A stretch of DNA of 64,000 bases from NCBI RefSeq assembly GCF_030384885.1, contig NZ_CP128613.1. The stretch is one strand, 5' to 3'. The DNA is from Escherichia coli. Its GTDB lineage: Bacteria > Pseudomonadota > Gammaproteobacteria > Enterobacterales > Enterobacteriaceae. Positions within the stretch are counted from its first letter, which is position 1. The number at the start of each line of letters is the position of its first letter. The notes under the pieces were generated by a model. That model searched no databases, was not told the DNA's origin, and saw only the letters and a program-made list of their open reading frames with translations. Both the position numbers and the translations under genes were made by a program. This document shows positions 26,113 to 43,290 of this stretch, piece by piece.

Positions 26113-26126
26113 GGTGCGCATAATGT
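26113..26126. other. Left prophage-chromosome junction (dif-derived XerC arm fused to phage sequence)
   Basis: GGTGCGCATAATGT core followed by phage-derived CAACGCGTTATGTTGAAAAGG; sequence to the left differs from that left of the other two core copies, so it is chromosomal. Confidence 0.7.
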
Positions 26127-26210
26127 CAACGCGTTATGTTGAAAAGGCCGCTGCGAAAATCGAATCCCGCAGCGGCCTCTTTAGCATAACGTCATTGTGC
26201 GAACCAATAG

Positions 26211-27140: not shown

Positions 27141-27223
27141 TTTATAATCCTCAAAGATATGCCATTAATATGTCTGAGTTGATGAAAATCACACCGCTTT
27201 TACAGTCGTTTTCCACGGTGGAG

Positions 27224-27646
27224 TTACCAGTAATATGAGTTTCTTCTGTGCCACCAATAAAGAAGTCCGTATCCAATGATAAGAATTCCGAAAAACATCA
27301 ACGACATTCCCCAGCCAGTTCCGTACCACGAAACCATATCATCGAAAACTAACCCACCCATTTCACGAACTCCGGCTGCTTCCTTAAGAATTGGTTTGAA
27401 TACCGGAATCAGAAGGGCGATCGCAAGTGGAGCACCCCAGCGAACAAGACCAGTTTCCATTTTGATCCCGAAAAAGATCCCCGCACCGACAACAAGCAAC
27501 CAGACTATCAGGCCAGGCGCAGTTTCTAGTGCTGTTTGCCATTCAACATCGAAAGTTTTCATTAGCCAGGCAACAACTGCCAGACAGAAAGCAAATACGC
27601 CTACAACAACCAGTTCAACGCCGCTTGTTTCGTTATTTCTACTCAT
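27224..27646 (-). CDS. Prophage cargo: small integral membrane protein (about 4 TM helices)
   Basis: Track ORF 27224-27793 trimmed to the internal ATG at 27646 (MSRNNETSGVELVVVGVFAF...) with RBS AAGGAT, which removes the overlap with the upstream gene. Four hydrophobic segments; function unknown. Confidence 0.55.
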   Translation of the reverse strand: MSRNNETSGVELVVVGVFAFCLAVVAWLMKTFDVEWQTALETAPGLIVWLLVVGAGIFFGIKMETGLVRWGAPLAIALLIPVFKPILKEAAGVREMGGLVFDDMVSWYGTGWGMSLMFFGILIIGYGLLYWWHRRNSYYW

Positions 27647-27734
27647 CCTTTTGATCCTTTGTTGCTGTTCAAAATCCGCACAATAAAGAACGTGCAGTGT
27701 AGGTAATACTGCACGTTTGTACCATTCGTGGTAC

Positions 27735-27917
27735 TTAATCCTTTTGTTTGGCAGACATGAGATCTTCTGCTGCATCTTTAGAGTAGTTATCAATCAGATA
27801 ACCTAAAATCTCTGTCCATGTAATTGTTTTTCCTAGTTTTACACTGGCATTTATAGCCAGTCGTTCTAGTTTCATTTTTCTTTCTTCCGTCACGTTATAA
27901 GTCGTGCGCTTTGCCAT
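27735..27917 (-). CDS. Small putative DNA-binding regulator (candidate phage repressor)
   Basis: 60-aa ORF divergently transcribed from gII, the position occupied by repressors in CTX-type phages; basic N-terminus (MAKRTTYNVTEERKMKLERLAI). Fold not verified. Confidence 0.4.
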   Translation of the reverse strand: MAKRTTYNVTEERKMKLERLAINASVKLGKTITWTEILGYLIDNYSKDAAEDLMSAKQKD

Positions 27918-27964
27918 TTTTTACGCTCGTTCAATGCAATATTTGAAGTGAGTATACATGCTCA

Positions 27965-28045
27965 TGAACTCATATCATCCAAGCCTCTTGAACTCACTAG
28001 CTCACTGGTGTAATGTTTAAACACTAATGAACTACTGAACTCATG
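27965..28045. promoter_or_regulatory. Divergent promoter/operator region with iterated TGAACTCA motifs
   Basis: TGAACTCA at 27965-27972, 27989-27996 and 28038-28045, plus the variant TGAACTAC at 28027-28034, between the regulator gene and gII. Confidence 0.5.
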
Positions 28046-28086
28046 TGTTAGTAAGTCGTCATTTTTGTAATTTTGAGGATTTATTC

Positions 28087-29139
28087 GTGATCGATTGGCT
28101 TACCGGGATTTTCCCTTGCACACACAAACCGCTTCCGGCGGGGAGTGTTGTCAGCGTTGATGCTGACGGTGCAATTGAGTGGGAAACCGTTAAGCGACTG
28201 ACTGTTCGCGGTTCGCATGAAGCAACGATGAAAGTACGATCGATAGGATCTAATGGCGAAGGTAAAGCGACACATTTGTACATTGATGGTAATCCTTCCA
28301 AGTTTCTGCAGGGGCATTCTGTTGTTGGGTCGGATGATATACAAGGGCTCATGTTGACGGTCTATGCCAGGATTTTATCCTTATTGAATATTCCTCATGA
28401 TTTAGCGGCTTATAAAGCCGTTATGGCAGGTCAGTATAAAATTTCACGTATTGACATTAATTACATGTATTCATTATCTACGCTGGAAAATGTCAGATCA
28501 TGGCTTTATGCCGCCGAATTTAAAGCTAAAACACGCCATGGTCGCGCATGTGGGAAAGGCGGTACAGTTTATTTAGGTAAAAACTCCCGTCGATGGAGTC
28601 TGAAATTTTATTCAAAATATGATGAACACGTTTCTGGTAAAAAAGGGCACCAGATAGCCGAAGAGTTTGTACGAGCCGGGTTACTGGACTGGACGAAAGA
28701 TAAATTACGTATTGAATTAACATTAAGAACAACTGAGCTTATTGATTTAAATTTAACGCTTGGCGCTAACTGGAATATGAAAACACCACGTCAATTATTC
28801 TCTGAATATGTAGGGAGAATAGAAATGAATCAGAATGCTATTTTAAGTGATGAAAAAATAACGAAACTGCCAAGAAAAATACAGTCAACTTATTTACTTT
28901 GGAAACAAGGGGCTAACATGAAAGAAATGTTACCTCATAACACTTTTTATCGCCATAGAAGAGAATTGCTTTCGTTCGGTATCGATATTAATTTCTATTG
29001 TGATTCACCAGACTCTAATAACGTTGTTCCGCTAATAAGAACGCTGGAAGCCAAGCCAGCGGAAATCCCCTTATGGATTTATGAGAAAGGTTTTATTTTC
29101 GATTACAACCGTATTTCGCACGCCAGTAGCTGGCATTAA
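28087..29139 (+). CDS. Replication initiation protein (gII-like rolling-circle nickase)
   Basis: Track ORF 28045-29139 (GTG). Preferred start is GTG 28087 with RBS GAGGA 7 nt upstream, giving N-terminus MIDWLTGIFPC... comparable to M13 pII MIDMLVLRLPF...; C-terminal NNVVPLIRT resembles pII NNVVPLVRF. Confidence 0.75.
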   Translation: MIDWLTGIFPCTHKPLPAGSVVSVDADGAIEWETVKRLTVRGSHEATMKVRSIGSNGEGKATHLYIDGNPSKFLQGHSVVGSDDIQGLMLTVYARILSLLNIPHDLAAYKAVMAGQYKISRIDINYMYSLSTLENVRSWLYAAEFKAKTRHGRACGKGGTVYLGKNSRRWSLKFYSKYDEHVSGKKGHQIAEEFVRAGLLDWTKDKLRIELTLRTTELIDLNLTLGANWNMKTPRQLFSEYVGRIEMNQNAILSDEKITKLPRKIQSTYLLWKQGANMKEMLPHNTFYRHRRELLSFGIDINFYCDSPDSNNVVPLIRTLEAKPAEIPLWIYEKGFIFDYNRISHASSWH

Positions 29140-29150
29140 AGGAAAGTAAT

Positions 29151-29468
29151 ATGTCTAATTATGGTCTTTTCGTTAAGGGTAAAATGTTGGGAGCCCGCCA
29201 ACGTAATAAAGTTAATGGTCAGGGCTATTATAATGAAATTGGTATTGGCCTTGAAATACCTGATGGTTTTGGTGGTACAAAGCAGGATCAAATTATTATT
29301 CGAGTTTCTCAGGCTCTCGTTAACGCAGGTCTAATGAACCAGGCGAATGCTTTCATTGGGAAATTAGTTCAAATTCCTGTCTATGTCCGTGCGTGGTCAA
29401 TGGAGGGTAGGGAAGGTGTAACTTATAATGTTTCTTCCGATGGTGGCATCGCAGAGATCAAAGGTTAA
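29151..29468 (+). CDS. ssDNA-binding protein (gV-like)
   Basis: 105-aa ORF immediately after gII with RBS AGGAAAG; position and size fit the inovirus ssDNA-binding protein. Confidence 0.65.
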   Translation: MSNYGLFVKGKMLGARQRNKVNGQGYYNEIGIGLEIPDGFGGTKQDQIIIRVSQALVNAGLMNQANAFIGKLVQIPVYVRAWSMEGREGVTYNVSSDGGIAEIKG

Positions 29469-29470
29469 AT

Positions 29471-29557
29471 ATGGACGATGTTATTCAAATTTTGATAGCG
29501 TCTGGCATCGTTATTTCTTTTGGCCTCGGCGCGATTACTGCGGGGGTCTTTCGTTAA
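29471..29557 (+). CDS. Minor coat protein (gVII-like), 28 aa
   Basis: MDDVIQILIASGIVISFGLGAITAGVFR resembles M13 g7p (MEQVADFDTIYQAMIQISVVLCFALGIIAGGQR). Below the ORF-track size cut-off; found by hand. Confidence 0.65.
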   Translation: MDDVIQILIASGIVISFGLGAITAGVFR

Positions 29558-29652
29558 TGTATATCGTTTATTTCTTCGGGGCTTATACCTTTGGTTTTGC
29601 CCTTTTCTATGCGGTCGGTTCATTTAAATCATTTTCTGACCGATTAATGTAA
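29557..29652 (+). CDS. Minor coat protein (gIX-like), 31 aa
   Basis: MYIVYFFGAYTFGFALFYAVGSFKSFSDRLM; start overlaps the gVII stop (TAATG) as in Ff phages; hydrophobic like M13 g9p. Confidence 0.6.
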   Translation: MYIVYFFGAYTFGFALFYAVGSFKSFSDRLM

Positions 29653-29671
29653 CCTTAATGGAGTTATTCCT

Positions 29672-29914
29672 ATGAAAATTCTGTCTACTGTTAAATATAA
29701 AGTTGCTCTGGCTTCAACTGCGCTTTTTATTTCTGCAAGTTCTTTTGCGGCTGAAGGCGCTACAGGTGGTACTGATTATGCAGGCCAGGCAATGGATGCT
29801 TTGTTGACTCAGGCAAATGATCTCATTGGTAAAGTATGGCCTGTTGTTGTGGCTGTGGTTGGCGCTGGGCTTGCCATTCGTATTTTCAAAAAATTCTCTT
29901 CAAAAGCGGTTTGA
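29672..29914 (+). CDS. Major coat protein (gVIII-like)
   Basis: 80-aa ORF with signal peptide ending SFAAEG and C-terminus [12 protein letters not shown], close to M13 g8p (...SFAAEG... IKLFKKFTSKAS). Confidence 0.9.
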
Positions 29915-29960
29915 ATTTCACTCAGGGGCACTCGTTGCCCCTTTATTAAAGCGGGTTACT

Positions 29961-31211
29961 ATGAAAAGGAAAATATTAATTCTTTCCGCTGTCCTCATTT
30001 CTCCTTTTTCACATGCTGAGTCATGGGAAAGCATTACTAAATCCACTTATCAAAGTTCTGCCTATGCTGAAAGTAAGCAAATAACCAATCAGGATGGCTC
30101 TAAGATAACGGTTTACTATATTGATGCTGCTATGCAGGCCTCCGCTTGTCAGGGTGCTAAATCCAGTGCTCAGAGTGTATTTACTCGGATTAAACCAACT
30201 TATGAGGGTATCTGGCCTGATTCTGAATTCCGTCTTGTTTTTACTGGCGATTGTACTTACAGCGATTCACCAGGGCAGAAGGATAAATATTGGTCTTTAA
30301 CGGCTTATATTGTTGGTAATATTCAGCGTTCTGTTCCTGATGAAAAACCTACTGACCCGACACCAGAAGAAATTTGTGAAGCGAAGCCGCCAGAAGAAGG
30401 TGTATTTAATAATGTTGATTCATATGATGGTGGTCGCTATATCTACTATAACGGCTGTGAATATGAGGCTACTGGTGTCATTGTTTGTCAGGGTGATGGT
30501 ACTGTTTGCGCTGCAACATGGAAGCCTACAGGTGCTGTAGCTGACCCCTCTGATAAACCCTCAACCCCCCAAAATGGTGGTGGTGAGTCTGGCGGTGGTG
30601 AGTCCGGCGGTGGTGAGTCCGGTGGTGGTGAGTCTGGCGGTGGTGAGTCCGGTGGCGGTAGTTCTGGCGGTGGCTCTAGTGGTTCCAGTCTTTCTAAAGG
30701 TGATATTCAGTCTGCGATCGAAGGTGCTTCACCCAAAATAGCCAGCGATATTCATGATAAATTAACGGAGAAAGACACTTCATCAGATGATAAAAAAAAT
30801 GCCGATGAACAAACCAGGAATAATATAAATCGTCTTGACGATTCCATTAACAATCTTACGCGGGGGGCTGGCCGTTTTGCTGACCCTTCAGGTGGTGATT
30901 CTCGTTATGGAAAGGGCGACTCTGAATTAGATGGCGCTTCTACTTTAGCTGATTCTGAATTGGGAATTGAAAAGGATTCTCACGGTGCTTTATGGGAAGC
31001 ATTTTTAAATAAAGGTGCTATGCTGCCTAATTTACCCAATGGTAACGGCTGCTCTGATTTTATTATTTTTCCCGGAGAGGTTTATCAGATTGATATTGGT
31101 TGCGATAAATTACTGACTATTAAAGATGTTCTTTCATGGGTTTTTTATTGCCTTACGTTCTGGTATGTCTTTACTTCTTTAACTTCATTGCTTCGCAAAG
31201 GGGGTGAGTGA
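29961..31211 (+). CDS. Adsorption protein (gIII-like) with Gly-rich linker
   Basis: Track ORF 29817-31211 trimmed to ATG 29961 ([19 protein letters not shown] signal peptide). GGGES x5 linker and C-terminal anchor (IDIGCDKLL...[17 protein letters not shown]) resemble M13 g3p. Confidence 0.85.
30575..30690 (+). repeat. Tandem 15-bp coding repeats (GGGES)n in the gIII linker
   Basis: Repeated ggtggtgagtc(c/t)ggc units read directly. Confidence 0.85.
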
Positions 31212-31552
31212 TGCCTTTATTATTAGGTATTCCTGCATTGTTGCGTTTTCTTATTGGTCTTGTTCCTTTGTTTATTGGCTATGTGGCGAGTTTTTTAGCT
31301 CGACTTGCTACCAGAACAGGATTAATTGCCTTTGCATTGGTCGCATTAATTACAACAACTGTTACGCTTTTAATGCAGTACCTTGCTGAGGTCATGTATA
31401 ACGGTTTACCTGCTGATTTCTCCCATTTAATGGCGTCTGTATTGCCTGACCATTTTCAGGCGTGTGTTAACGTTATTATGGTTACTCGTATCAGTGTTTT
31501 TGTTTTCGATTTAAAACAAAAATTTCTTGATTATGCAAACAGGGTGATTTAA
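31211..31552 (+). CDS. Minor coat protein (gVI-like)
   Basis: [24 protein letters not shown]... resembles M13 g6p MPVLLGIPLLLRFLGFLLVTLFGY...; ATG overlaps the gIII stop (TGATG). Confidence 0.85.
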   Translation: MPLLLGIPALLRFLIGLVPLFIGYVASFLARLATRTGLIAFALVALITTTVTLLMQYLAEVMYNGLPADFSHLMASVLPDHFQACVNVIMVTRISVFVFDLKQKFLDYANRVI

Positions 31553-32647
31553 ATGGCGGTTTATGTAGTAACAGGCAAATTAGGCTCAGGCAAGACACTT
31601 GTTAGTGTTTCCAGAATACAGGAAAGACTTGCTAAGGGTTGTCCTGTTGCCACTAATCTTGATCTTAAATTGCATAATATGCCTATGGTTGGGCGTTATG
31701 CGAAAAAAACGCGCGTTATTCGCATTCCTGACAAACCTTCATTAAATGATTTACTTGCTATTGGTACTGGGAATACATCTTACGATGAATCCCGTAATGG
31801 CCTCCTTGTACTTGATGAATGTGGTACTTGGTTTAATTCCCGCTCATGGGGTGATAAAGACAGGCAACCTGTTATTGACTGGTTTTTACATGCCAGAAAA
31901 TTAGGCTGGGATATTATATTTTTGATTCAGGATATTTCGATAATGGATAAGCAAGCTCGTCTGGCGCTTGCTGAGCATGTTGTTTATTGTCGCCGTTCAG
32001 ATAAATTAAACATTCCTTTTGTTGGCTCCATTATGAATTTGGTTTCAGGGGCGAGATTTTCTTTACCAAAGGTACACTTTGGCATTGTCAAATATGGTGA
32101 TAATGTTAATTCAATCACTGTTGATAAATGGATATATACAGGAAAATCTCTTTATTCTGCTTACAATACCAAACAAGCGTTCACAGATAATTATCCTCAT
32201 GGCGCATTTTCGCTTTTGCCACCATTTATCACGCACGGTCAATTTTCTGTTCACAGAGGATTTAATTATTATATGCGCCTCACTAAAATTTATTTTCGCA
32301 AATCGAACCGTCTTATATTAATGCTTTCTTTTTTGGCGCTGGGGCTTGCGTTTGGTTTCTGGCTCCAGTCTGGAAAGAATGTTGATGAAATCTCAGCTAT
32401 TAAATCTGCTTATGCTGAACAGGCGAGGGCGGTAACGCCTGATTCGTCCAGTGACTTACCCCGACTTTCTATTAATTCTTTTTCACAACTTGGCTTTGAC
32501 GTTTCCGTTACGTTTGTTGATGCAAAAGGTATGAAATATCAGTATTTTGATTTGATTAAAGATGGTTATTCCGTTGATATTAAAGATGCCTGTCGTGTTG
32601 TTATTAGAAAAGGCCGTTATTTACAGACTGTTACCTGTCAGGAGTAA
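31553..32647 (+). CDS. Assembly ATPase (gI-like; Zot family)
   Basis: MAVYVVTGKLGSGKTLVSV... resembles M13 g1p MAVYFVTGKLGSGKTLVSV...; Walker A GKLGSGKT; C-terminal TM segment. Confidence 0.9.
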   Translation: MAVYVVTGKLGSGKTLVSVSRIQERLAKGCPVATNLDLKLHNMPMVGRYAKKTRVIRIPDKPSLNDLLAIGTGNTSYDESRNGLLVLDECGTWFNSRSWGDKDRQPVIDWFLHARKLGWDIIFLIQDISIMDKQARLALAEHVVYCRRSDKLNIPFVGSIMNLVSGARFSLPKVHFGIVKYGDNVNSITVDKWIYTGKSLYSAYNTKQAFTDNYPHGAFSLLPPFITHGQFSVHRGFNYYMRLTKIYFRKSNRLILMLSFLALGLAFGFWLQSGKNVDEISAIKSAYAEQARAVTPDSSSDLPRLSINSFSQLGFDVSVTFVDAKGMKYQYFDLIKDGYSVDIKDACRVVIRKGRYLQTVTCQE

Positions 32648-32654
32648 TATTATT

Positions 32655-33920
32655 ATGCGCTCTGTTATTGTTGCTTTTTTATTTGCCTGTTCATTCTGCG
32701 TTTCTGCTGAAACTGTTAATTTAAATAATTCATCTGTTCGCTCATTTGTTCAGTGGTATTCTTCAAAAACTGGCAAGCCTGTTATTGTTAATCCTGATAT
32801 TAAAGGAAACGTAACCGTATTTAATGCTGATGTTAATCCAGCAAATATTGATGATTTCTTTAAGTCTGTTCTGAATGCTAACGGTTTTGTCATGCTTTCT
32901 GGCAATCCTGCGGTAGTCTCTTTGCCGTCTAAATTACCTTCACAGATGGTTTCGGATTCCGATGATTCTGATAACCAGTCTTATGATACTTTTCCTTCTG
33001 AGCCATCTTACCAGCCAGTACCTGTGGCGCTTACGGTCAGAAATTTTAAGCTGACAAAAGTTAGATCGTCCGATGTTCAGCAACTGATTAAAATTTATCT
33101 TGATTCTAATGGTGGTGGTAATGTCGTGGATTATCCAGGCAATAACTCGCTGATTGTTTCTGCGCCTGACGAGCTGCTGCCGGTTCTGTCCGATTTTATC
33201 AATTCTGTGGATGTTGCCCGCGATCAGGTTCTCATTCAGTCGCTGATGTTTGAAACCAGCTTGTCTGATGGCGTTGATTTATCGTTTGCGGCAGGTTCTG
33301 CATCCGGTCATAAGGTTGCGGGGGGCTTTAATACTTCTGCACTGGGTAGCGCTCTTTCTACGGCGGGCGGTTCTTTTGGTATTTTTGATGGTAACGTGTT
33401 GGCGCTGTCTCTGCGTGCTGTCCAGAGTAATTCACGCTCTAAGGTGATTTCAACGCCGCGTATTCTTACTCAGTCTGGTCAGACTGGTTACATTTCCGTA
33501 GGTAAGAATGTGCCGTTTATCACCGGAAAGGTAACGGGCGAATCTGCCGGGGTAAATAATCCGTTTCAGACTATCGAGCGTCATGATGTTGGCGTTTCTC
33601 TCAAGGTAACGCCTGTTGTCATGGGTAACGGGCAACTAGTTCTGACTATCGACACTCGCGCTGATTCAATCAGCAATGATGATCAGGCATCCGATATTAT
33701 TACTAATCAGCGCCAGATTCAGACGACAGTCCAGATTAAGGATGGTCAGACGTTGTTATTGGGAGGGCTTATCGATTCATCGTTCAGCAATGCCGAGCGT
33801 TCAGTTCCAGTTATAAGTAAAATTCCTCTTATAGGCTGGATTTTCAGTAGCAAGGCAGACAGCAATGAACAGCGTATTATGTATATTTTGCTTACAGCAC
33901 ATATCATTCGTCCACTTTGA
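32655..33920 (+). CDS. Outer-membrane secretin (gIV-like)
   Basis: Track ORF 32562-33920 trimmed to ATG 32655 (MRSVIVAFLFACSFCVSA signal peptide). Secretin C-domain (GQTLLLGGLIDSSFSNAERSVPVISKIPLIGWIFSS) resembles M13 g4p. Confidence 0.9.
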   Translation: MRSVIVAFLFACSFCVSAETVNLNNSSVRSFVQWYSSKTGKPVIVNPDIKGNVTVFNADVNPANIDDFFKSVLNANGFVMLSGNPAVVSLPSKLPSQMVSDSDDSDNQSYDTFPSEPSYQPVPVALTVRNFKLTKVRSSDVQQLIKIYLDSNGGGNVVDYPGNNSLIVSAPDELLPVLSDFINSVDVARDQVLIQSLMFETSLSDGVDLSFAAGSASGHKVAGGFNTSALGSALSTAGGSFGIFDGNVLALSLRAVQSNSRSKVISTPRILTQSGQTGYISVGKNVPFITGKVTGESAGVNNPFQTIERHDVGVSLKVTPVVMGNGQLVLTIDTRADSISNDDQASDIITNQRQIQTTVQIKDGQTLLLGGLIDSSFSNAERSVPVISKIPLIGWIFSSKADSNEQRIMYILLTAHIIRPL

Positions 33921-33962
33921 TGGATAGCGGGTAGGTGCGTGAGCCCTGCTCGCTATCCATCA
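33918..33962 (+). other. Strong stem-loop after gIV (candidate packaging signal, origin element or terminator)
   Basis: Perfect 12-bp inverted repeat TGATGGATAGCG / CGCTATCCATCA around a 21-nt loop, with no trailing T-run. Confidence 0.5.
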
Positions 33963-33989
33963 AATGGACATTATTGATTGGGGTAACTA

Positions 33990-34298
33990 ATGGATTCTTA
34001 TGGGATTTTATCTGCTCTGGCAGAACGAACGATTACAGCGGAAGAAGCAAAAACAATGACACTTGCAGCCAGAAGTTCTTCGGCTCAGGTAAATGAAGCA
34101 TCACTTGCTCTGTTACTGATTGATAATACTCTGGATGCGATCAAAGCAGCTGCCAGTGAAGGGAAAGGATACACTTTACTTCCTTCTTATGAGATTTCTG
34201 TAAAAGCCATTGATTTAGCAGAAGAATTTTTAAGGAAACAATGCGGCTATGTTATTGATAACCAGAATGGCGTAAGGACGGTCTATTGGTTTATATGA
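33990..34298 (+). CDS. Prophage cargo: hypothetical 102-aa protein
   Basis: ORF after gIV, where Ff phages have only the non-coding intergenic region; no recognisable motif. Confidence 0.45.
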   Translation: MDSYGILSALAERTITAEEAKTMTLAARSSSAQVNEASLALLLIDNTLDAIKAAASEGKGYTLLPSYEISVKAIDLAEEFLRKQCGYVIDNQNGVRTVYWFI

Positions 34299-34415
34299 TA
34301 ACCCCGGACAATGACAAAACTTGCTTTTGTTAGTGTCAGGGGTTGGCCAAGCCGAACAATTCTGTTTTTTTAGCGTTATTGCTGATTCGGCGCGGCAGCA
34401 TTACGAGGAGATAAA

Positions 34416-34649
34416 ATGCAATTTTTCACATCCAGCGATACTGTAATGTTATGTGCGAAGACCTGCGATCGCTGTGGTCGCCATGCGAAGACGGTGGTAG
34501 ATGACATTGAGTTCAATGAGTTTCTGTCTGTTAATCACTTAGCTGGATACGGTTCAATTTTTGGTGACAGTAATCGCTTAAAACTGGATTTATGCCAACA
34601 TTGCCTGAAAGACGTCCTGGGCCAGTGGATTACGGTCTGTGACCAATGA
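34416..34649 (+). CDS. Prophage cargo: small zinc-ribbon protein (CxxC...CxxC)
   Basis: 77-aa ORF with CDRC ... CQHC cysteine pairs; RBS GAGGAG upstream. Confidence 0.5.
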   Translation: MQFFTSSDTVMLCAKTCDRCGRHAKTVVDDIEFNEFLSVNHLAGYGSIFGDSNRLKLDLCQHCLKDVLGQWITVCDQ

Positions 34650-34687
34650 CGGCACCGGTAACGCCAGTTCCCGCCATCCTTACCATT

Positions 34688-34701
34688 GGTGCGCATAATG
34701 T
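34688..34701. other. Inter-copy junction (reconstituted phage attP-like site)
   Basis: GGTGCGCATAATGT core flanked by phage sequence on both sides (...CCATCCTTACCATT | core | CAACGCGTTATGTTGAAAAGG). Confidence 0.7.
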
Positions 34702-34785
34702 CAACGCGTTATGTTGAAAAGGCCGCTGCGAAAATCGAATCCCGCAGCGGCCTCTTTAGCATAACGTCATTGTGCGAACCAATAG

Positions 34786-35715
34786 CTACTTTTTCGTATA
34801 ACTCTCTTCGCATTTAGCCAAAAACAGCAGATTAGTAGCGGTTAAATGAAGGGTATAACTCGCTAAATACTCAGGAACTTTTGTTATTTCTGCCCCTTGT
34901 CCATGTCCACCTTCTTTATTTCGAATGGTTGGAATACCACTCTCAAGTAGAATTCTTATTGAAGAAAATTGATTCTGGAGGTATTCAGGTACTAAATTAT
35001 TTGCCAAACAACTGTTAATTAGTTTTTTAGCTGTGTCAGTATCATTAAATTGCCAAGAATGTTTTTTATGTATGGCTTTCATTAGACTTTCAAAAGATTT
35101 GAGGCAATCATTTAAACATTCTTTATATCGCTGATGTCTATAATGCTCATGGGCGGATAAAAACTCATCGTTTGCTCCGTTATAACTCTTGTTCTTACCA
35201 AGAATCTGAAGCGTAGGCTTTACAACATCAGAATGAATGAATTGTGAGTCAACTTTAACCAACTCTCCTGACTCAAATTGATATCCAAGACCTGCTTCTT
35301 TAAACCTGATATTAAGTTCTTCAATAGCATCATCAGGACTTTGCTTTACTAACCCTCTGAATTTCCACTCATTTGATCTTATATACCCGTCTATCAGTTT
35401 GAAACATATCTCAATGATATCCAAGCATTTTTCATGATCTCTCTCAGCTAGGAAATAGTCAAAAATTGCCCCGAAATTCGATTCAGGATACTGTTTGAGA
35501 GAGAATACACCATATTCCTTACACAGCGTTTTATGAACGAGTCTGTAAAGCTTACTTGCTTCCGTTTCATAGTCACTATCTTCACCGATAGTATCTCTTA
35601 CAATATGAACAACCTGAACACGAAATGCATTTGGTATATTCGTGTATTGGTAAACATCAGCTACTTCACCTCTTAATTTTTTTTGTCTTTTTGAAAATAA
35701 TTCGAATATAGCCAA
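34786..35715 (-). CDS. Copy 2: putative HEPN/Abi_C-like protein
   Basis: Identical translation to 26211-27140 (offset +8575). Confidence 0.5.
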   Translation of the reverse strand: MAIFELFSKRQKKLRGEVADVYQYTNIPNAFRVQVVHIVRDTIGEDSDYETEASKLYRLVHKTLCKEYGVFSLKQYPESNFGAIFDYFLAERDHEKCLDIIEICFKLIDGYIRSNEWKFRGLVKQSPDDAIEELNIRFKEAGLGYQFESGELVKVDSQFIHSDVVKPTLQILGKNKSYNGANDEFLSAHEHYRHQRYKECLNDCLKSFESLMKAIHKKHSWQFNDTDTAKKLINSCLANNLVPEYLQNQFSSIRILLESGIPTIRNKEGGHGQGAEITKVPEYLASYTLHLTATNLLFLAKCEESYTKK

Positions 35716-35798
35716 TTTATAATCCTCAAAGATATGCCATTAATATGTCTGAGTTGATGAAAATCACACCGCTTTTACAGTCGTTTTCCACGGTGGAG

Positions 35799-36221
35799 TT
35801 ACCAGTAATATGAGTTTCTTCTGTGCCACCAATAAAGAAGTCCGTATCCAATGATAAGAATTCCGAAAAACATCAACGACATTCCCCAGCCAGTTCCGTA
35901 CCACGAAACCATATCATCGAAAACTAACCCACCCATTTCACGAACTCCGGCTGCTTCCTTAAGAATTGGTTTGAATACCGGAATCAGAAGGGCGATCGCA
36001 AGTGGAGCACCCCAGCGAACAAGACCAGTTTCCATTTTGATCCCGAAAAAGATCCCCGCACCGACAACAAGCAACCAGACTATCAGGCCAGGCGCAGTTT
36101 CTAGTGCTGTTTGCCATTCAACATCGAAAGTTTTCATTAGCCAGGCAACAACTGCCAGACAGAAAGCAAATACGCCTACAACAACCAGTTCAACGCCGCT
36201 TGTTTCGTTATTTCTACTCAT
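35799..36221 (-). CDS. Copy 2: small integral membrane protein
   Basis: Identical to 27224-27646 (offset +8575). Confidence 0.55.
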   Translation of the reverse strand: MSRNNETSGVELVVVGVFAFCLAVVAWLMKTFDVEWQTALETAPGLIVWLLVVGAGIFFGIKMETGLVRWGAPLAIALLIPVFKPILKEAAGVREMGGLVFDDMVSWYGTGWGMSLMFFGILIIGYGLLYWWHRRNSYYW

Positions 36222-36309
36222 CCTTTTGATCCTTTGTTGCTGTTCAAAATCCGCACAATAAAGAACGTGCAGTGTAGGTAATACTGCACGTTTGTACCAT
36301 TCGTGGTAC

Positions 36310-36492
36310 TTAATCCTTTTGTTTGGCAGACATGAGATCTTCTGCTGCATCTTTAGAGTAGTTATCAATCAGATAACCTAAAATCTCTGTCCATGTAATT
36401 GTTTTTCCTAGTTTTACACTGGCATTTATAGCCAGTCGTTCTAGTTTCATTTTTCTTTCTTCCGTCACGTTATAAGTCGTGCGCTTTGCCAT
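36310..36492 (-). CDS. Copy 2: small putative DNA-binding regulator
   Basis: Identical to 27735-27917 (offset +8575). Confidence 0.4.
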   Translation of the reverse strand: MAKRTTYNVTEERKMKLERLAINASVKLGKTITWTEILGYLIDNYSKDAAEDLMSAKQKD

Positions 36493-36539
36493 TTTTTACG
36501 CTCGTTCAATGCAATATTTGAAGTGAGTATACATGCTCA

Positions 36540-36620
36540 TGAACTCATATCATCCAAGCCTCTTGAACTCACTAGCTCACTGGTGTAATGTTTAAACACT
36601 AATGAACTACTGAACTCATG
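36540..36620. promoter_or_regulatory. Copy 2: TGAACTCA iteron/operator region
   Basis: Identical to 27965-28045 (offset +8575). Confidence 0.5.
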
Positions 36621-36661
36621 TGTTAGTAAGTCGTCATTTTTGTAATTTTGAGGATTTATTC

Positions 36662-37714
36662 GTGATCGATTGGCTTACCGGGATTTTCCCTTGCACACAC
36701 AAACCGCTTCCGGCGGGGAGTGTTGTCAGCGTTGATGCTGACGGTGCAATTGAGTGGGAAACCGTTAAGCGACTGACTGTTCGCGGTTCGCATGAAGCAA
36801 CGATGAAAGTACGATCGATAGGATCTAATGGCGAAGGTAAAGCGACACATTTGTACATTGATGGTAATCCTTCCAAGTTTCTGCAGGGGCATTCTGTTGT
36901 TGGGTCGGATGATATACAAGGGCTCATGTTGACGGTCTATGCCAGGATTTTATCCTTATTGAATATTCCTCATGATTTAGCGGCTTATAAAGCCGTTATG
37001 GCAGGTCAGTATAAAATTTCACGTATTGACATTAATTACATGTATTCATTATCTACGCTGGAAAATGTCAGATCATGGCTTTATGCCGCCGAATTTAAAG
37101 CTAAAACACGCCATGGTCGCGCATGTGGGAAAGGCGGTACAGTTTATTTAGGTAAAAACTCCCGTCGATGGAGTCTGAAATTTTATTCAAAATATGATGA
37201 ACACGTTTCTGGTAAAAAAGGGCACCAGATAGCCGAAGAGTTTGTACGAGCCGGGTTACTGGACTGGACGAAAGATAAATTACGTATTGAATTAACATTA
37301 AGAACAACTGAGCTTATTGATTTAAATTTAACGCTTGGCGCTAACTGGAATATGAAAACACCACGTCAATTATTCTCTGAATATGTAGGGAGAATAGAAA
37401 TGAATCAGAATGCTATTTTAAGTGATGAAAAAATAACGAAACTGCCAAGAAAAATACAGTCAACTTATTTACTTTGGAAACAAGGGGCTAACATGAAAGA
37501 AATGTTACCTCATAACACTTTTTATCGCCATAGAAGAGAATTGCTTTCGTTCGGTATCGATATTAATTTCTATTGTGATTCACCAGACTCTAATAACGTT
37601 GTTCCGCTAATAAGAACGCTGGAAGCCAAGCCAGCGGAAATCCCCTTATGGATTTATGAGAAAGGTTTTATTTTCGATTACAACCGTATTTCGCACGCCA
37701 GTAGCTGGCATTAA
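36662..37714 (+). CDS. Copy 2: replication initiation protein (gII-like)
   Basis: Identical to 28087-29139 (offset +8575). Confidence 0.75.
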   Translation: MIDWLTGIFPCTHKPLPAGSVVSVDADGAIEWETVKRLTVRGSHEATMKVRSIGSNGEGKATHLYIDGNPSKFLQGHSVVGSDDIQGLMLTVYARILSLLNIPHDLAAYKAVMAGQYKISRIDINYMYSLSTLENVRSWLYAAEFKAKTRHGRACGKGGTVYLGKNSRRWSLKFYSKYDEHVSGKKGHQIAEEFVRAGLLDWTKDKLRIELTLRTTELIDLNLTLGANWNMKTPRQLFSEYVGRIEMNQNAILSDEKITKLPRKIQSTYLLWKQGANMKEMLPHNTFYRHRRELLSFGIDINFYCDSPDSNNVVPLIRTLEAKPAEIPLWIYEKGFIFDYNRISHASSWH

Positions 37715-37725
37715 AGGAAAGTAAT

Positions 37726-38043
37726 ATGTCTAATTATGGTCTTTTCGTTAAGGGTAAAATGTTGGGAGCCCGCCAACGTAATAAAGTTAATGGTCAGGGC
37801 TATTATAATGAAATTGGTATTGGCCTTGAAATACCTGATGGTTTTGGTGGTACAAAGCAGGATCAAATTATTATTCGAGTTTCTCAGGCTCTCGTTAACG
37901 CAGGTCTAATGAACCAGGCGAATGCTTTCATTGGGAAATTAGTTCAAATTCCTGTCTATGTCCGTGCGTGGTCAATGGAGGGTAGGGAAGGTGTAACTTA
38001 TAATGTTTCTTCCGATGGTGGCATCGCAGAGATCAAAGGTTAA
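37726..38043 (+). CDS. Copy 2: ssDNA-binding protein (gV-like)
   Basis: Identical to 29151-29468 (offset +8575). Confidence 0.65.
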   Translation: MSNYGLFVKGKMLGARQRNKVNGQGYYNEIGIGLEIPDGFGGTKQDQIIIRVSQALVNAGLMNQANAFIGKLVQIPVYVRAWSMEGREGVTYNVSSDGGIAEIKG

Positions 38044-38045
38044 AT

Positions 38046-38132
38046 ATGGACGATGTTATTCAAATTTTGATAGCGTCTGGCATCGTTATTTCTTTTGGCC
38101 TCGGCGCGATTACTGCGGGGGTCTTTCGTTAA
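38046..38132 (+). CDS. Copy 2: gVII-like minor coat protein
   Basis: Identical to 29471-29557 (offset +8575). Confidence 0.65.
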   Translation: MDDVIQILIASGIVISFGLGAITAGVFR

Positions 38133-38227
38133 TGTATATCGTTTATTTCTTCGGGGCTTATACCTTTGGTTTTGCCCTTTTCTATGCGGTCGGTTCATTT
38201 AAATCATTTTCTGACCGATTAATGTAA
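38132..38227 (+). CDS. Copy 2: gIX-like minor coat protein
   Basis: Identical to 29557-29652 (offset +8575). Confidence 0.6.
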   Translation: MYIVYFFGAYTFGFALFYAVGSFKSFSDRLM

Positions 38228-38246
38228 CCTTAATGGAGTTATTCCT

Positions 38247-38489
38247 ATGAAAATTCTGTCTACTGTTAAATATAAAGTTGCTCTGGCTTCAACTGCGCTT
38301 TTTATTTCTGCAAGTTCTTTTGCGGCTGAAGGCGCTACAGGTGGTACTGATTATGCAGGCCAGGCAATGGATGCTTTGTTGACTCAGGCAAATGATCTCA
38401 TTGGTAAAGTATGGCCTGTTGTTGTGGCTGTGGTTGGCGCTGGGCTTGCCATTCGTATTTTCAAAAAATTCTCTTCAAAAGCGGTTTGA
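38247..38489 (+). CDS. Copy 2: major coat protein (gVIII-like)
   Basis: Identical to 29672-29914 (offset +8575). Confidence 0.9.
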
Positions 38490-38535
38490 ATTTCACTCAG
38501 GGGCACTCGTTGCCCCTTTATTAAAGCGGGTTACT

Positions 38536-39786
38536 ATGAAAAGGAAAATATTAATTCTTTCCGCTGTCCTCATTTCTCCTTTTTCACATGCTGAGTCATG
38601 GGAAAGCATTACTAAATCCACTTATCAAAGTTCTGCCTATGCTGAAAGTAAGCAAATAACCAATCAGGATGGCTCTAAGATAACGGTTTACTATATTGAT
38701 GCTGCTATGCAGGCCTCCGCTTGTCAGGGTGCTAAATCCAGTGCTCAGAGTGTATTTACTCGGATTAAACCAACTTATGAGGGTATCTGGCCTGATTCTG
38801 AATTCCGTCTTGTTTTTACTGGCGATTGTACTTACAGCGATTCACCAGGGCAGAAGGATAAATATTGGTCTTTAACGGCTTATATTGTTGGTAATATTCA
38901 GCGTTCTGTTCCTGATGAAAAACCTACTGACCCGACACCAGAAGAAATTTGTGAAGCGAAGCCGCCAGAAGAAGGTGTATTTAATAATGTTGATTCATAT
39001 GATGGTGGTCGCTATATCTACTATAACGGCTGTGAATATGAGGCTACTGGTGTCATTGTTTGTCAGGGTGATGGTACTGTTTGCGCTGCAACATGGAAGC
39101 CTACAGGTGCTGTAGCTGACCCCTCTGATAAACCCTCAACCCCCCAAAATGGTGGTGGTGAGTCTGGCGGTGGTGAGTCCGGCGGTGGTGAGTCCGGTGG
39201 TGGTGAGTCTGGCGGTGGTGAGTCCGGTGGCGGTAGTTCTGGCGGTGGCTCTAGTGGTTCCAGTCTTTCTAAAGGTGATATTCAGTCTGCGATCGAAGGT
39301 GCTTCACCCAAAATAGCCAGCGATATTCATGATAAATTAACGGAGAAAGACACTTCATCAGATGATAAAAAAAATGCCGATGAACAAACCAGGAATAATA
39401 TAAATCGTCTTGACGATTCCATTAACAATCTTACGCGGGGGGCTGGCCGTTTTGCTGACCCTTCAGGTGGTGATTCTCGTTATGGAAAGGGCGACTCTGA
39501 ATTAGATGGCGCTTCTACTTTAGCTGATTCTGAATTGGGAATTGAAAAGGATTCTCACGGTGCTTTATGGGAAGCATTTTTAAATAAAGGTGCTATGCTG
39601 CCTAATTTACCCAATGGTAACGGCTGCTCTGATTTTATTATTTTTCCCGGAGAGGTTTATCAGATTGATATTGGTTGCGATAAATTACTGACTATTAAAG
39701 ATGTTCTTTCATGGGTTTTTTATTGCCTTACGTTCTGGTATGTCTTTACTTCTTTAACTTCATTGCTTCGCAAAGGGGGTGAGTGA
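38536..39786 (+). CDS. Copy 2: adsorption protein (gIII-like)
   Basis: Identical to 29961-31211 (offset +8575). Confidence 0.85.
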
Positions 39787-40127
39787 TGCCTTTATTATTA
39801 GGTATTCCTGCATTGTTGCGTTTTCTTATTGGTCTTGTTCCTTTGTTTATTGGCTATGTGGCGAGTTTTTTAGCTCGACTTGCTACCAGAACAGGATTAA
39901 TTGCCTTTGCATTGGTCGCATTAATTACAACAACTGTTACGCTTTTAATGCAGTACCTTGCTGAGGTCATGTATAACGGTTTACCTGCTGATTTCTCCCA
40001 TTTAATGGCGTCTGTATTGCCTGACCATTTTCAGGCGTGTGTTAACGTTATTATGGTTACTCGTATCAGTGTTTTTGTTTTCGATTTAAAACAAAAATTT
40101 CTTGATTATGCAAACAGGGTGATTTAA
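39786..40127 (+). CDS. Copy 2: gVI-like minor coat protein
   Basis: Identical to 31211-31552 (offset +8575). Confidence 0.85.
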   Translation: MPLLLGIPALLRFLIGLVPLFIGYVASFLARLATRTGLIAFALVALITTTVTLLMQYLAEVMYNGLPADFSHLMASVLPDHFQACVNVIMVTRISVFVFDLKQKFLDYANRVI

Positions 40128-41222: not shown

Positions 41223-41229
41223 TATTATT

Positions 41230-42495
41230 ATGCGCTCTGTTATTGTTGCTTTTTTATTTGCCTGTTCATTCTGCGTTTCTGCTGAAACTGTTAATTTAAA
41301 TAATTCATCTGTTCGCTCATTTGTTCAGTGGTATTCTTCAAAAACTGGCAAGCCTGTTATTGTTAATCCTGATATTAAAGGAAACGTAACCGTATTTAAT
41401 GCTGATGTTAATCCAGCAAATATTGATGATTTCTTTAAGTCTGTTCTGAATGCTAACGGTTTTGTCATGCTTTCTGGCAATCCTGCGGTAGTCTCTTTGC
41501 CGTCTAAATTACCTTCACAGATGGTTTCGGATTCCGATGATTCTGATAACCAGTCTTATGATACTTTTCCTTCTGAGCCATCTTACCAGCCAGTACCTGT
41601 GGCGCTTACGGTCAGAAATTTTAAGCTGACAAAAGTTAGATCGTCCGATGTTCAGCAACTGATTAAAATTTATCTTGATTCTAATGGTGGTGGTAATGTC
41701 GTGGATTATCCAGGCAATAACTCGCTGATTGTTTCTGCGCCTGACGAGCTGCTGCCGGTTCTGTCCGATTTTATCAATTCTGTGGATGTTGCCCGCGATC
41801 AGGTTCTCATTCAGTCGCTGATGTTTGAAACCAGCTTGTCTGATGGCGTTGATTTATCGTTTGCGGCAGGTTCTGCATCCGGTCATAAGGTTGCGGGGGG
41901 CTTTAATACTTCTGCACTGGGTAGCGCTCTTTCTACGGCGGGCGGTTCTTTTGGTATTTTTGATGGTAACGTGTTGGCGCTGTCTCTGCGTGCTGTCCAG
42001 AGTAATTCACGCTCTAAGGTGATTTCAACGCCGCGTATTCTTACTCAGTCTGGTCAGACTGGTTACATTTCCGTAGGTAAGAATGTGCCGTTTATCACCG
42101 GAAAGGTAACGGGCGAATCTGCCGGGGTAAATAATCCGTTTCAGACTATCGAGCGTCATGATGTTGGCGTTTCTCTCAAGGTAACGCCTGTTGTCATGGG
42201 TAACGGGCAACTAGTTCTGACTATCGACACTCGCGCTGATTCAATCAGCAATGATGATCAGGCATCCGATATTATTACTAATCAGCGCCAGATTCAGACG
42301 ACAGTCCAGATTAAGGATGGTCAGACGTTGTTATTGGGAGGGCTTATCGATTCATCGTTCAGCAATGCCGAGCGTTCAGTTCCAGTTATAAGTAAAATTC
42401 CTCTTATAGGCTGGATTTTCAGTAGCAAGGCAGACAGCAATGAACAGCGTATTATGTATATTTTGCTTACAGCACATATCATTCGTCCACTTTGA
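41230..42495 (+). CDS. Copy 2: secretin (gIV-like)
   Basis: Identical to 32655-33920 (offset +8575). Confidence 0.9.
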   Translation: MRSVIVAFLFACSFCVSAETVNLNNSSVRSFVQWYSSKTGKPVIVNPDIKGNVTVFNADVNPANIDDFFKSVLNANGFVMLSGNPAVVSLPSKLPSQMVSDSDDSDNQSYDTFPSEPSYQPVPVALTVRNFKLTKVRSSDVQQLIKIYLDSNGGGNVVDYPGNNSLIVSAPDELLPVLSDFINSVDVARDQVLIQSLMFETSLSDGVDLSFAAGSASGHKVAGGFNTSALGSALSTAGGSFGIFDGNVLALSLRAVQSNSRSKVISTPRILTQSGQTGYISVGKNVPFITGKVTGESAGVNNPFQTIERHDVGVSLKVTPVVMGNGQLVLTIDTRADSISNDDQASDIITNQRQIQTTVQIKDGQTLLLGGLIDSSFSNAERSVPVISKIPLIGWIFSSKADSNEQRIMYILLTAHIIRPL

Positions 42496-42537
42496 TGGAT
42501 AGCGGGTAGGTGCGTGAGCCCTGCTCGCTATCCATCA
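42493..42537 (+). other. Copy 2: stem-loop after gIV
   Basis: Identical to 33918-33962 (offset +8575). Confidence 0.5.
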
Positions 42538-42564
42538 AATGGACATTATTGATTGGGGTAACTA

Positions 42565-42873
42565 ATGGATTCTTATGGGATTTTATCTGCTCTGGCAGAA
42601 CGAACGATTACAGCGGAAGAAGCAAAAACAATGACACTTGCAGCCAGAAGTTCTTCGGCTCAGGTAAATGAAGCATCACTTGCTCTGTTACTGATTGATA
42701 ATACTCTGGATGCGATCAAAGCAGCTGCCAGTGAAGGGAAAGGATACACTTTACTTCCTTCTTATGAGATTTCTGTAAAAGCCATTGATTTAGCAGAAGA
42801 ATTTTTAAGGAAACAATGCGGCTATGTTATTGATAACCAGAATGGCGTAAGGACGGTCTATTGGTTTATATGA
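42565..42873 (+). CDS. Copy 2: hypothetical 102-aa cargo protein
   Basis: Identical to 33990-34298 (offset +8575). Confidence 0.45.
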   Translation: MDSYGILSALAERTITAEEAKTMTLAARSSSAQVNEASLALLLIDNTLDAIKAAASEGKGYTLLPSYEISVKAIDLAEEFLRKQCGYVIDNQNGVRTVYWFI

Positions 42874-42990
42874 TAACCCCGGACAATGACAAAACTTGCT
42901 TTTGTTAGTGTCAGGGGTTGGCCAAGCCGAACAATTCTGTTTTTTTAGCGTTATTGCTGATTCGGCGCGGCAGCATTACGAGGAGATAAA

Positions 42991-43224
42991 ATGCAATTTT
43001 TCACATCCAGCGATACTGTAATGTTATGTGCGAAGACCTGCGATCGCTGTGGTCGCCATGCGAAGACGGTGGTAGATGACATTGAGTTCAATGAGTTTCT
43101 GTCTGTTAATCACTTAGCTGGATACGGTTCAATTTTTGGTGACAGTAATCGCTTAAAACTGGATTTATGCCAACATTGCCTGAAAGACGTCCTGGGCCAG
43201 TGGATTACGGTCTGTGACCAATGA
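42991..43224 (+). CDS. Copy 2: zinc-ribbon cargo protein
   Basis: Identical to 34416-34649 (offset +8575). Confidence 0.5.
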   Translation: MQFFTSSDTVMLCAKTCDRCGRHAKTVVDDIEFNEFLSVNHLAGYGSIFGDSNRLKLDLCQHCLKDVLGQWITVCDQ

Positions 43225-43262
43225 CGGCACCGGTAACGCCAGTTCCCGCCATCCTTACCATT

Positions 43263-43290
43263 GGTGCGCATAATGTATATTATGTTAAAT
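43263..43290. other. dif: Chromosomal dif site (XerC/XerD dimer-resolution site), intact
   Basis: Exact match to the E. coli dif consensus GGTGCGCATAATGTATATTATGTTAAAT, read directly; forms the right prophage junction. Confidence 0.9.

Follow-up and report, generated by a model that had tools for sequence, protein, structure and literature searches.

The intergenic region of the Ff filamentous phages (f1/M13) carries a packaging-signal hairpin, [A], directly after gIV, as well as the minus-origin hairpins [B] and [C]. YpfΦ of Yersinia pestis has been described as an 8.7-kb tandemly repeated inovirus integrated at dif, and CUS-1, its relative in Escherichia coli K1, is 99% identical to it over 7.1 kb (PMC4266046). 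Two open reading frames (ORFs) of YpfΦ, YPO2280a and YPO2281, adjoin attR and have no predictable function, and the end-of-genome ORFs have been named as the main unexplained part of the CUS-1/YpfΦ phages (PMC4266046). In YpfΦ, CUS-1Φ and CTXφ, a folded single-stranded attP is integrated irreversibly through XerC, and new phage arises by rolling-circle replication from tandem copies (PMC4246890). Here we describe the stretch from gIV to the junction of two tandem prophage copies in an E. coli window (the whole stretch of DNA analysed, 64,000 nucleotides of contig NZ_CP128613.1). This stretch forms the right-hand end of a filamentous prophage of the CUS-1/YpfΦ type, a CTXφ-type element exploiting Xer recombination. 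When the roles proposed below for its hairpins and its cargo genes are taken together, the region on balance probably corresponds in function to the Ff intergenic region and has taken up two accessory genes, ORF102 and ORF77, independently of each other.

The accessory region at the right end of CUS-1 and YpfΦ is already known in the literature, and Gonzalez 2002 and Derbise 2007 are reportedly the sources for YPO2280a/YPO2281 and their CUS-1 homologues. Our prophage shows the features by which a CUS-1/YpfΦ-type element (a CTXφ-type integrative mobile element exploiting Xer, IMEX) is recognised, namely integration at dif, tandem copies and a foldable attP with two sites. It is the same element as YpfΦ/CUS-1 without substantive difference, having two small ORFs between the secretin gene and attR in a dif-integrated tandem prophage, and the 99% identity reported between CUS-1 and YpfΦ extends over this part. 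The publications on YpfΦ/CUS-1 that were examined make no mention of the ORF77 family, the independence of the two genes or the conserved hairpins, and what is new here, at the level of annotation, is a hairpin proposed as packaging signal, a pair of conserved hairpins marking the cargo slot, and the placement of the ORF77 family. CUS-1 and YpfΦ have been associated with fitness in extra-intestinal E. coli and in pandemic Y. pestis. An earlier note on this DNA, made from the sequence alone, had identified one hairpin and the two ORFs; it was incomplete in missing the prior description of the phage and its ORFs, a two-hairpin element between the ORFs, and the forked attP. The parts of the right-hand end are as follows.

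33916..33964, + strand: hairpin 1, a candidate packaging signal, which starts in the gIV stop codon and has the conserved apex GGTGCGTnAGCC
33990..34298, + strand: ORF102 (102 aa), in the position of YpfΦ YPO2280a; an acidic protein with a predicted small alpha/beta fold
34300..34344, + strand: hairpin A (stem of 20 pairs), the 5' half of a conserved structured element
34346..34396, + strand: hairpin B, the 3' half of this element; a variable cargo slot begins at its 3' end
34416..34649, + strand: ORF77 (77 aa), in the position of YpfΦ YPO2281; an acidic four-Cys zinc-ribbon protein in the cargo slot
34685..34783, + strand: forked attP hairpin of the CTX type at the junction of the copies, with the XerC arm GGTGCGCATAA at 34688

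Along the packaged + strand, hairpin 1, overlapping the gIV stop codon, would serve as the packaging signal for CUS-1-type assembly proteins, and ORF102 would be an accessory gene confined to this phage lineage. Hairpins A and B (together, A+B) would form, as our best guess, a minus-strand origin using host RNA polymerase or primase. A variable cargo slot, here holding ORF77, would begin right after hairpin B, and the forked attP would come last. ORF77 would be a stand-alone copy of a widespread acidic zinc ribbon that binds protein and not DNA. This arrangement resembles that of Ff in having a long + strand hairpin after gIV and then two adjacent hairpins, all of them strand-asymmetric and conserved as structures. 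It differs in having protein genes placed among the hairpins and no sequence similarity to deposited phages; no -35/-10 mimic was recognised, and the plus origin is probably elsewhere, GAACTCA repeats being found upstream of gII. The proposal that the two ORFs are cargo occupying the place of the Ff intergenic region was half right: they are cargo, but they are interleaved with likely equivalents of that region and do not replace it. The resemblance to CTXφ lies in accessory genes placed between the assembly genes and attP, where CTXφ has ctxAB, in a folded single-stranded attP made of two inverted dif-like sites, and in the tandem prophage array needed for phage production. The cargo here, however, bears no relation to cholera toxin and is not known to contribute to virulence, and the phage encodes its own secretin. 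That CTX-type phages carry their cargo at this place, as previously noted for this locus, agrees with the YpfΦ literature as well (PMC4266046).

Hairpin 1 had been reported at 33918-33962 with a perfect 12-bp stem. The hairpin is real, but its arms extend over 33916-33935 and 33945-33964 (20 nt each, 90% complementary and 9 nt apart) and its perfect core is 13 bp long (33917-29 with 33951-63), with the gIV stop codon (33918-20) inside the stem. It folds as DNA with -24.5 kcal/mol (z = -7.3), and 0 of 200 shuffled sequences folded as well. Seven sequence variants were obtained from phages whose gI/gIV are of the CUS-1 type (92-100% identical), and each of the seven folds, with -33 to -43 kcal/mol under RNA parameters, into a long, almost perfect hairpin beginning within the gIV stop codon. 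These variants share the conserved apex GGTGCGT-n-AGCC, while their stems differ with compensation, 6 of the 16 lower-stem pairs having changed on both sides. In the alignment 92.9% of cells were paired, versus 75.4% in shuffles (0/500) and 31-48% in slid controls. In 7/7 variants the + strand is the more stable one, owing to conserved G·T wobbles. Compared with the Salmonella phage L086, hairpin 1 is 91.8% identical, the adjacent spacer 52% and ORF102 71.5%.

Every locus with CUS-1-type gI/gIV carries hairpin 1, including four that lack ORF102 (L094, L100, L101 and L106). It is absent from UPΦ-like phages, whose gIV is only 27-29% identical and whose assembly genes are unrelated, and a scan of viral contigs with the hairpin-1 pattern returned no new variants, only chance matches. 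The conserved apex and the strict co-occurrence with one assembly module suggest recognition by phage assembly proteins. Because this long + strand hairpin lies immediately 3' of gIV, as the packaging signal does in Ff, is strand-specific, has a conserved loop and is inherited together with one assembly module, we give about an even chance to its being the packaging signal recognised by CUS-1-type assembly proteins. The packaging signal of integrative filamentous phages has been described as largely unknown, and hairpin 1 and A+B provide concrete candidates for a packaging signal and a minus-strand origin. A precedent for a hairpin packaging signal in an integrative inovirus comes from Xanthomonas, where the signal is a short hairpin with essential stem and loop bases and is bound by PSB15, a small non-structural phage protein (bioRxiv 10.1101/2023.12.30.573655; 10.1101/2024.03.19.585677). 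The Xanthomonas signals differ from hairpin 1 in being 20-26 nt long and in working in either orientation. PSB15 also has a DUF3653 domain, which ORF102 and ORF77 lack, and hairpin 1 occurs without ORF102. A PSB15-like identity of ORF102 or ORF77 was rejected, as there was no DUF3653 match in either protein and the WAGFxF motif was absent from both.

Hairpin 1 might instead act in RNA, by stabilising the 3' end of the gII-gIV transcript, marking a site for its processing or terminating it weakly, since it sits exactly at the end of a long operon and overlaps the stop codon, its conserved wobbles are G·U-compatible, and the + strand that it favours is also the mRNA-sense strand. No T-run follows the stem, where AAATGGACATTATTG comes next, and a terminator scan of 33700-35000 found 0 terminator-like sites; with ORF102 beginning 25 nt downstream, efficient termination would cost that gene its read-through transcription. 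The conserved apex, the strict co-occurrence with one assembly module and the agreement in position with the Ff packaging signal likewise speak against an action in RNA, which we regard as rather unlikely. Covariation, the + strand bias and the missing T-run support the view that hairpin 1 is a structural single-strand element and not a terminator, as the earlier note had favoured.

A+B lies in the 117-nt structured spacer between ORF102 and ORF77. In 19 distinct sequences, nine pairs changed on both sides, six in hairpin A and three in hairpin B (for example, GC to AU at columns 51/102 and 59/94), versus 3.7±1.2 in shuffles (0/500) and 0-1 in slid controls; as the sequences used for covariation, here and for hairpin 1, are related, the shuffle statistics overstate their independence. 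The + strand was the more stable in 19/19 variants. A degenerate hairpin-A pattern gave 28 true matches in viral contigs, all of them on inovirus-sized contigs, and each of them downstream of gIV (or of ORF102), with a dif-like site 330-740 nt further on. A+B was found in every dif-integrating enterobacterial inovirus examined, regardless of assembly genes or cargo. It is common to phages with unrelated assembly modules, occurs with or without ORF77 or ORF102, and is kept where no ORF comes after it (L085-87, L094, L101, L106 and L118). The L021 group has it although its gV is only 36-37% identical and its gII is undetectable by tblastn.

Since A+B is kept in all these phages independently of their own proteins, a host-dependent single-strand function is most plausible, and its presence whatever the assembly genes or cargo, with only distant replication genes in L021-type phages, indicates that it probably depends on host factors. 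We are fairly sure that A+B is a conserved cis-acting single-strand element and not a private leader of ORF77. The private-leader candidate was rejected because the Salmonella phage L086 has the element without ORF77. Which single-strand function it serves is a more tentative matter. Adjacent + strand hairpins conserved as structure, with covariation and strand bias, are what a minus origin or Frpo would present, and by analogy with the Ff hairpins [B]/[C] and with Frpo/ssi signals A+B may be a minus-strand origin at which host RNA polymerase or primase starts the complementary strand, although we put this forward only as a working assignment that could well be wrong. An Rfam search returned only chance hairpin matches to microRNA families, far below gathering scores.

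It is possible, if somewhat doubtful, that A+B is not a minus-strand origin but works either as an RNA leader or insulator controlling the downstream cargo gene or as the packaging signal. Whichever cargo gene is present, its ribosome-binding site adjoins the 3' end of the element; A+B accompanies ORF77 on plasmids (L002 and L008), is the first hairpin after gIV in UPΦ-like phages, and showed no promoter-like hexamers in a scan. Against this, the element is retained in the phages listed above that have no downstream ORF, and its copies on plasmids belong to prophage remnants in which attP-like sequence is also present. As a packaging signal, A+B would need to serve two unrelated assembly modules. 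A further-reaching reading, which we consider unlikely when taken as a whole, would make A+B a hitherto unrecognised host-dependent single-stranded DNA element, perhaps a new type of minus-strand origin common to all dif-integrating enterobacterial inoviruses, with a 3' edge that also serves as the recombination border for cargo exchange; the ORF77 family would then be new and its members stand-alone inhibitors, such as orphan-antitoxin-like decoys against defences based on toxin-antitoxin systems or other defences.

Some observations weigh against the roles that we assign to the two structures. The G·T wobbles and the strand bias would be equally well explained by an RNA structure in the mRNA. 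The Ff minus origin and Frpo contain sigma-70-like -35/-10 elements, whereas a promoter scan of A+B on either strand found no -35/-10 mimic and inspection by eye found no convincing hexamers. The roles of A+B and hairpin 1 could also be swapped: the first position after gIV is the site of the packaging signal in Ff, and in UPΦ-like phages the first structure after gIV is A+B (in L005, 69 nt downstream of that gene). UPΦ-like and Salmonella phages have, between the cargo slot and dif, a non-coding element of ~300 nt that is conserved and contains several hairpins (such as CCCTGAG…CTCAGG), at 8351-8680 in L005, 5300-5600 in L019 and 10420-10720 in L086. CUS-1 keeps only about the last 35 nt of this element, which is a further candidate for an origin or a packaging signal.

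The 3' edge of hairpin B (…CGGCGCGGCAGCAT) is the point at which different cargo gene sequences diverge, and this divergence defines a variable cargo slot. The slot after hairpin B may hold ORF77, an unrelated ORF of 58-67 aa (phrog_6642), an ORF of 145 aa, or no ORF. If A+B is confirmed, its conserved 3' border would explain the exchange of accessory genes among these phages.

ORF102 and ORF77 have separate histories. Homologues of ORF77 lie after gIV in at least four inovirus lineages, namely the CUS-1 group, the UPΦ-like L005 (82% identity, with a gIV only 28% identical), L019/L020 (64%) and L021/L022/L097 (54-56%), and ORF102 is absent from the last three of these lineages. Conversely, the Salmonella phages L085-L087, L089 and L118 have an ORF102 that is 60% identical and no ORF77. 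The earlier note had suggested that the two genes could form a toxin-antitoxin pair, and some features would fit this or another obligate two-component cargo module: both are small genes of a mobile element, side by side and in the same direction, some relatives have the ORF77 domain fused to toxin-binding domains of antitoxins, and ORF102 has a weak, non-significant match to the ADP-ribosyltransferase toxin Tre1 (E = 0.3). Each gene, however, occurs without the other in related phages, the conserved structured spacer of 117 nt parts them so that they form no tight operon, and neither has any Pfam, NCBIfam or PADLOC match or a toxin, antitoxin or defence-system domain; on these grounds the pair was rejected. 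Their families are also of unequal size (10 clusters for ORF102 and ~1,300 for ORF77). A two-component module is thus very improbable, and the idea of the two genes as a pair is removed.

Both ORFs stand at the coordinates originally given for them and have plausible ribosome-binding sites, with GGGG upstream of the ORF102 ATG and GAGGAG upstream of the ORF77 ATG. Homologues of both were found in related phages, and the ratios of non-synonymous to synonymous substitution (dN/dS) against diverged homologues are low (0.14-0.24 for ORF102 and 0.05-0.06 for ORF77), indicating that both are under purifying selection and code for protein. Structure prediction and profile searches, which had been proposed for both proteins, gave PHROG matches for the pair (phrog_4115 and phrog_5435) and a confident ORF77 model, but no Pfam or NCBIfam match. 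Sequence-profile searches of the PDB gave no significant match for either protein.

Even when a profile was used as query, 5.8 billion proteins yielded no more than 10 clusters of the ORF102 family, and all members come from CUS-1-type phages of Enterobacteriaceae. The C-terminal two-thirds of the protein are highly conserved and the first 35 residues are not. We treat ORF102 as a lineage-restricted accessory gene. Its reading as an R3H domain was rejected, since the R-x3-H motif is absent (K72 and D/E75 being found instead) and the protein is acidic. In-frame fusions of the 5' part of gII with the 3' end of ORF77 or ORF102 were observed at 2807-3142 of L088 (P0019) and in P0014 (70 member sequences); these are prophage derivatives with internal deletions and without any assembly genes, which may be miniphage-like or decaying copies. 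Recurrent gII-ORF102 deletion fusions, suspected from the cluster listing, were rejected: most members are plain partial gII, and only P0014 and P0019/L088 are true fusions.

ORF77, in contrast to the small ORF102 family, belongs to a very large one. A search with a profile built from nine homologues returned 1,299 cluster representatives at 50% identity, 724 of them at E <= 1e-10. The two CxxC pairs already noticed in this protein (C17xxC20 and C60xxC63) are conserved throughout the family, in which C20, C60 and C63 never vary and 108 of 112 members have C17; further near-invariant positions, with C17, are D18, E35, G44, S47, G50, D51, D58, Q61, L68 and G69. The AlphaFold2 model of ORF77 is confident (predicted local distance difference test, pLDDT, 89.9) and has two short strands flanking the first CxxC, followed by a short helix, a beta-hairpin and a further helix starting at the second CxxC. 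Two conserved CxxC knuckles, at a strand end and a helix start, are the arrangement of a four-Cys zinc ribbon and predict metal binding. The family is acidic, with a mean net charge of -4.1 and 95% of members negative. When the 112 family members were each scanned singly against Pfam, no family covered the domain.

About one quarter of the best 150 ORF77 matches are longer proteins, and a few long members have two copies of the ORF77 domain. Among 34 long proteins of the family, 4-6 have the C-terminal toxin-binding domain of Xre/MbcA/ParS, one has TacA1 and two have DUF4926. Homologues were found on a Ralstonia plasmid and on a Polaromonas conjugative plasmid, in the latter within an array of ~17 co-directional small ORFs, and on 7-kb Proteus/Providencia plasmids beside a SIR2 gene. 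The neighbourhoods of 64 viral loci, including many larger (tailed-phage) contigs, contained no conserved partner gene for ORF77. Like the N-terminal domain of MqsA/YgiT-type antitoxins, ORF77 is a small four-Cys zinc ribbon, a kind of domain that in those antitoxins mediates protein binding; one of its relatives in the AlphaFold database was automatically named YgiT-type, and the ORF77 domain is fused to other antitoxin modules. Our best inference is that ORF77 is a protein-binding accessory factor of mobile elements. It could, for example, have a predicted orphan-antitoxin-like or anti-defence role, modulating a host or competitor function, for which there is a precedent in plasmid leading regions (PMC11541004). 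A role in phage replication or assembly is unlikely.

We also considered whether ORF77 is a zinc-ribbon regulator that binds DNA in the manner of a type II antitoxin N-terminal domain, with the repeats upstream of its own gene as the target. Its domain is N-terminal in the fusion proteins, the usual place of the DNA-binding domain of an antitoxin, and an inverted repeat does lie upstream of the gene. The acidity of the domain argues against DNA binding, as do the conserved residues D18, E35, D51 and D58. The upstream repeats, moreover, exist without ORF77, and their strand-asymmetric wobble pairs are unlike a double-stranded operator. In the TacA1 fusion the C-terminal part matches the TacA1 antitoxin family, which suggests that ORF77 was added as a domain and did not replace a DNA-binding one. 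We regard a DNA-binding ORF77 as improbable. Still less probable is a degenerate nuclease of the HNH type (beta-beta-alpha-metal), for which the predicted order strand, strand, helix with a CxxC at the helix start, a loose likeness in the motif D/N-H...G-D-G-N...L-C-x-x-C, and the automatic name 'HNH endonuclease' given to a few AlphaFold database relatives might speak; a conserved catalytic His at the end of strand 1 together with a profile or fold match to HNH was not found.

The protein-binding reading of ORF77 has points against it as well. It draws solely on charge, distribution and domain fusions, and the three fusion proteins that were looked up lay on short contigs or had no toxin neighbour. 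The AlphaFold model of ORF102 is weak (pLDDT 66.7), and the equivalence of ORF102 and ORF77 to YPO2280a and YPO2281 is inferred from their published position and the near-identity of CUS-1 and YpfΦ. With ORF77 placed as a member of a very large family of acidic zinc ribbons of mobile elements, the family is now testable in easier systems. On the Proteus terrae plasmid pZF2-7kb (L007) and on similar plasmids of 7-13 kb from Proteus/Providencia, an ORF77 homologue (55% identity) lies next to an 844-aa gene of the SIR2 family that is transcribed in the opposite, divergent direction; the L007-type plasmid also has a RelE/ParE module, and A+B is absent there.

The prophage lies in the terminus region of the E. 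coli chromosome, where an Ag43-like autotransporter gene and hipBA precede the tandem copies. Two inovirus copies of 8,575 bp each stand in tandem at dif with 0 differences between them, suggesting a recent duplication, re-integration or ongoing homogenisation. Each has a minus-strand regulatory/cargo block followed by gII, gV, gVII, gVIII, gIII, gVI, gI and gIV. The tandem arrangement (26113-43290) is what CTXφ-type phage production by rolling-circle replication needs. The sites that bound the copies, and the second right-hand end, are as follows.

26113: attL site, containing GGTGCGCATAA
34688: site at the junction of the copies, containing GGTGCGCATAA
43263-43290: attR, a true, canonical dif (GGTGCGCATAATGTATATTATGTTAAAT) that contains GGTGCGCATAA; the intact dif is regenerated at the right end
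42491..43290, + strand: second, identical copy of all right-end parts, in which the originally noted region recurs at 42493-43224, 8,575 bp downstream

The region is present at >=99% identity in 48 of 5,426 complete E. coli genomes, where it is annotated 'hypothetical protein (x2)', and both exact proteins occur on at least 1,000 Enterobacterales contigs. In Salmonella there is an episomal form of 7,938 bp. Among deposited phage genomes, neither DNA nor protein searches matched the region, ORF77 or the intergenic region of the UPΦ-like type. Of the E. coli records, the best match (L001, NZ_CP062855.1) is 100% identical over the query; its second prophage copy is annotated at 15887-18192 with a shortened gI region (a 705-nt ORF) and without ORF102 and ORF77, a difference from our window, in which both copies are intact.

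The attP at 34685-34783 folds with -37 kcal/mol (z = -5.3), an inverted repeat was detected in it, and its second, inverted dif-like site lies at ~34755-34783. Its structure as a pair of inverted XerC/D sites agrees with the published description (PMC4266046), and its classification as a forked attP of the CTX type follows PMC4246890. An ORF of 309 aa lies across attP from the right-end genes, at 34786-35715 (-) and again at 26211-27140 (-); it belongs to the NCBIfam family STM4504/CBY_0614 (4e-137) and has a second match, to PDC-S32, a PADLOC model for a candidate defence system (4.5e-10). A toxin gene of the Doc ('death-on-curing') family takes the place of this ORF in the Salmonella episomal form (L010), which indicates that the left-end cargo is variable too.

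An intact forked attP was also seen at 2851-2953 of L002, a plasmid-like metagenome contig of 66 kb, ~900 bp upstream of A+B. Its terminal stem has changed in a compensatory manner, from GGCCGCTGCG/CGCAGCGGCC to GCCTGCTGC/GCAGCAGC, its XerC arm is GGTGCGCGTAA, and it is followed by two small minus-strand ORFs, A+B and an ORF77 homologue. On the conjugative, virulence-type IncFIB/IncFII plasmid NZ_CP132652.1 of Klebsiella pneumoniae, near iroBC, we found a rearranged remnant (L008) of an L019-type filamentous prophage with A+B, an ORF77 homologue and attP-like pieces, which implies Xer-site integration into plasmids. The paper on UPΦ reported only gII and gV as common to YpfΦ (PMC7307601). The UPΦ-like contigs L005 and L019 carry ORF77 homologues (64-82% identity), A+B, and an attP hairpin 93-95% identical to that of CUS-1, so that sharing is wider than reported there, at least in some members.

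Upstream of gII, at 36500-36620 (and 27925-28045), there are at least four GAACTCA-type motifs (catGAACTCAt, ttGAACTCAc, ctGAACTCAt and atGAACTAc), an array that is a candidate operator array for a 60-aa RstR-like repressor or a candidate plus-origin.

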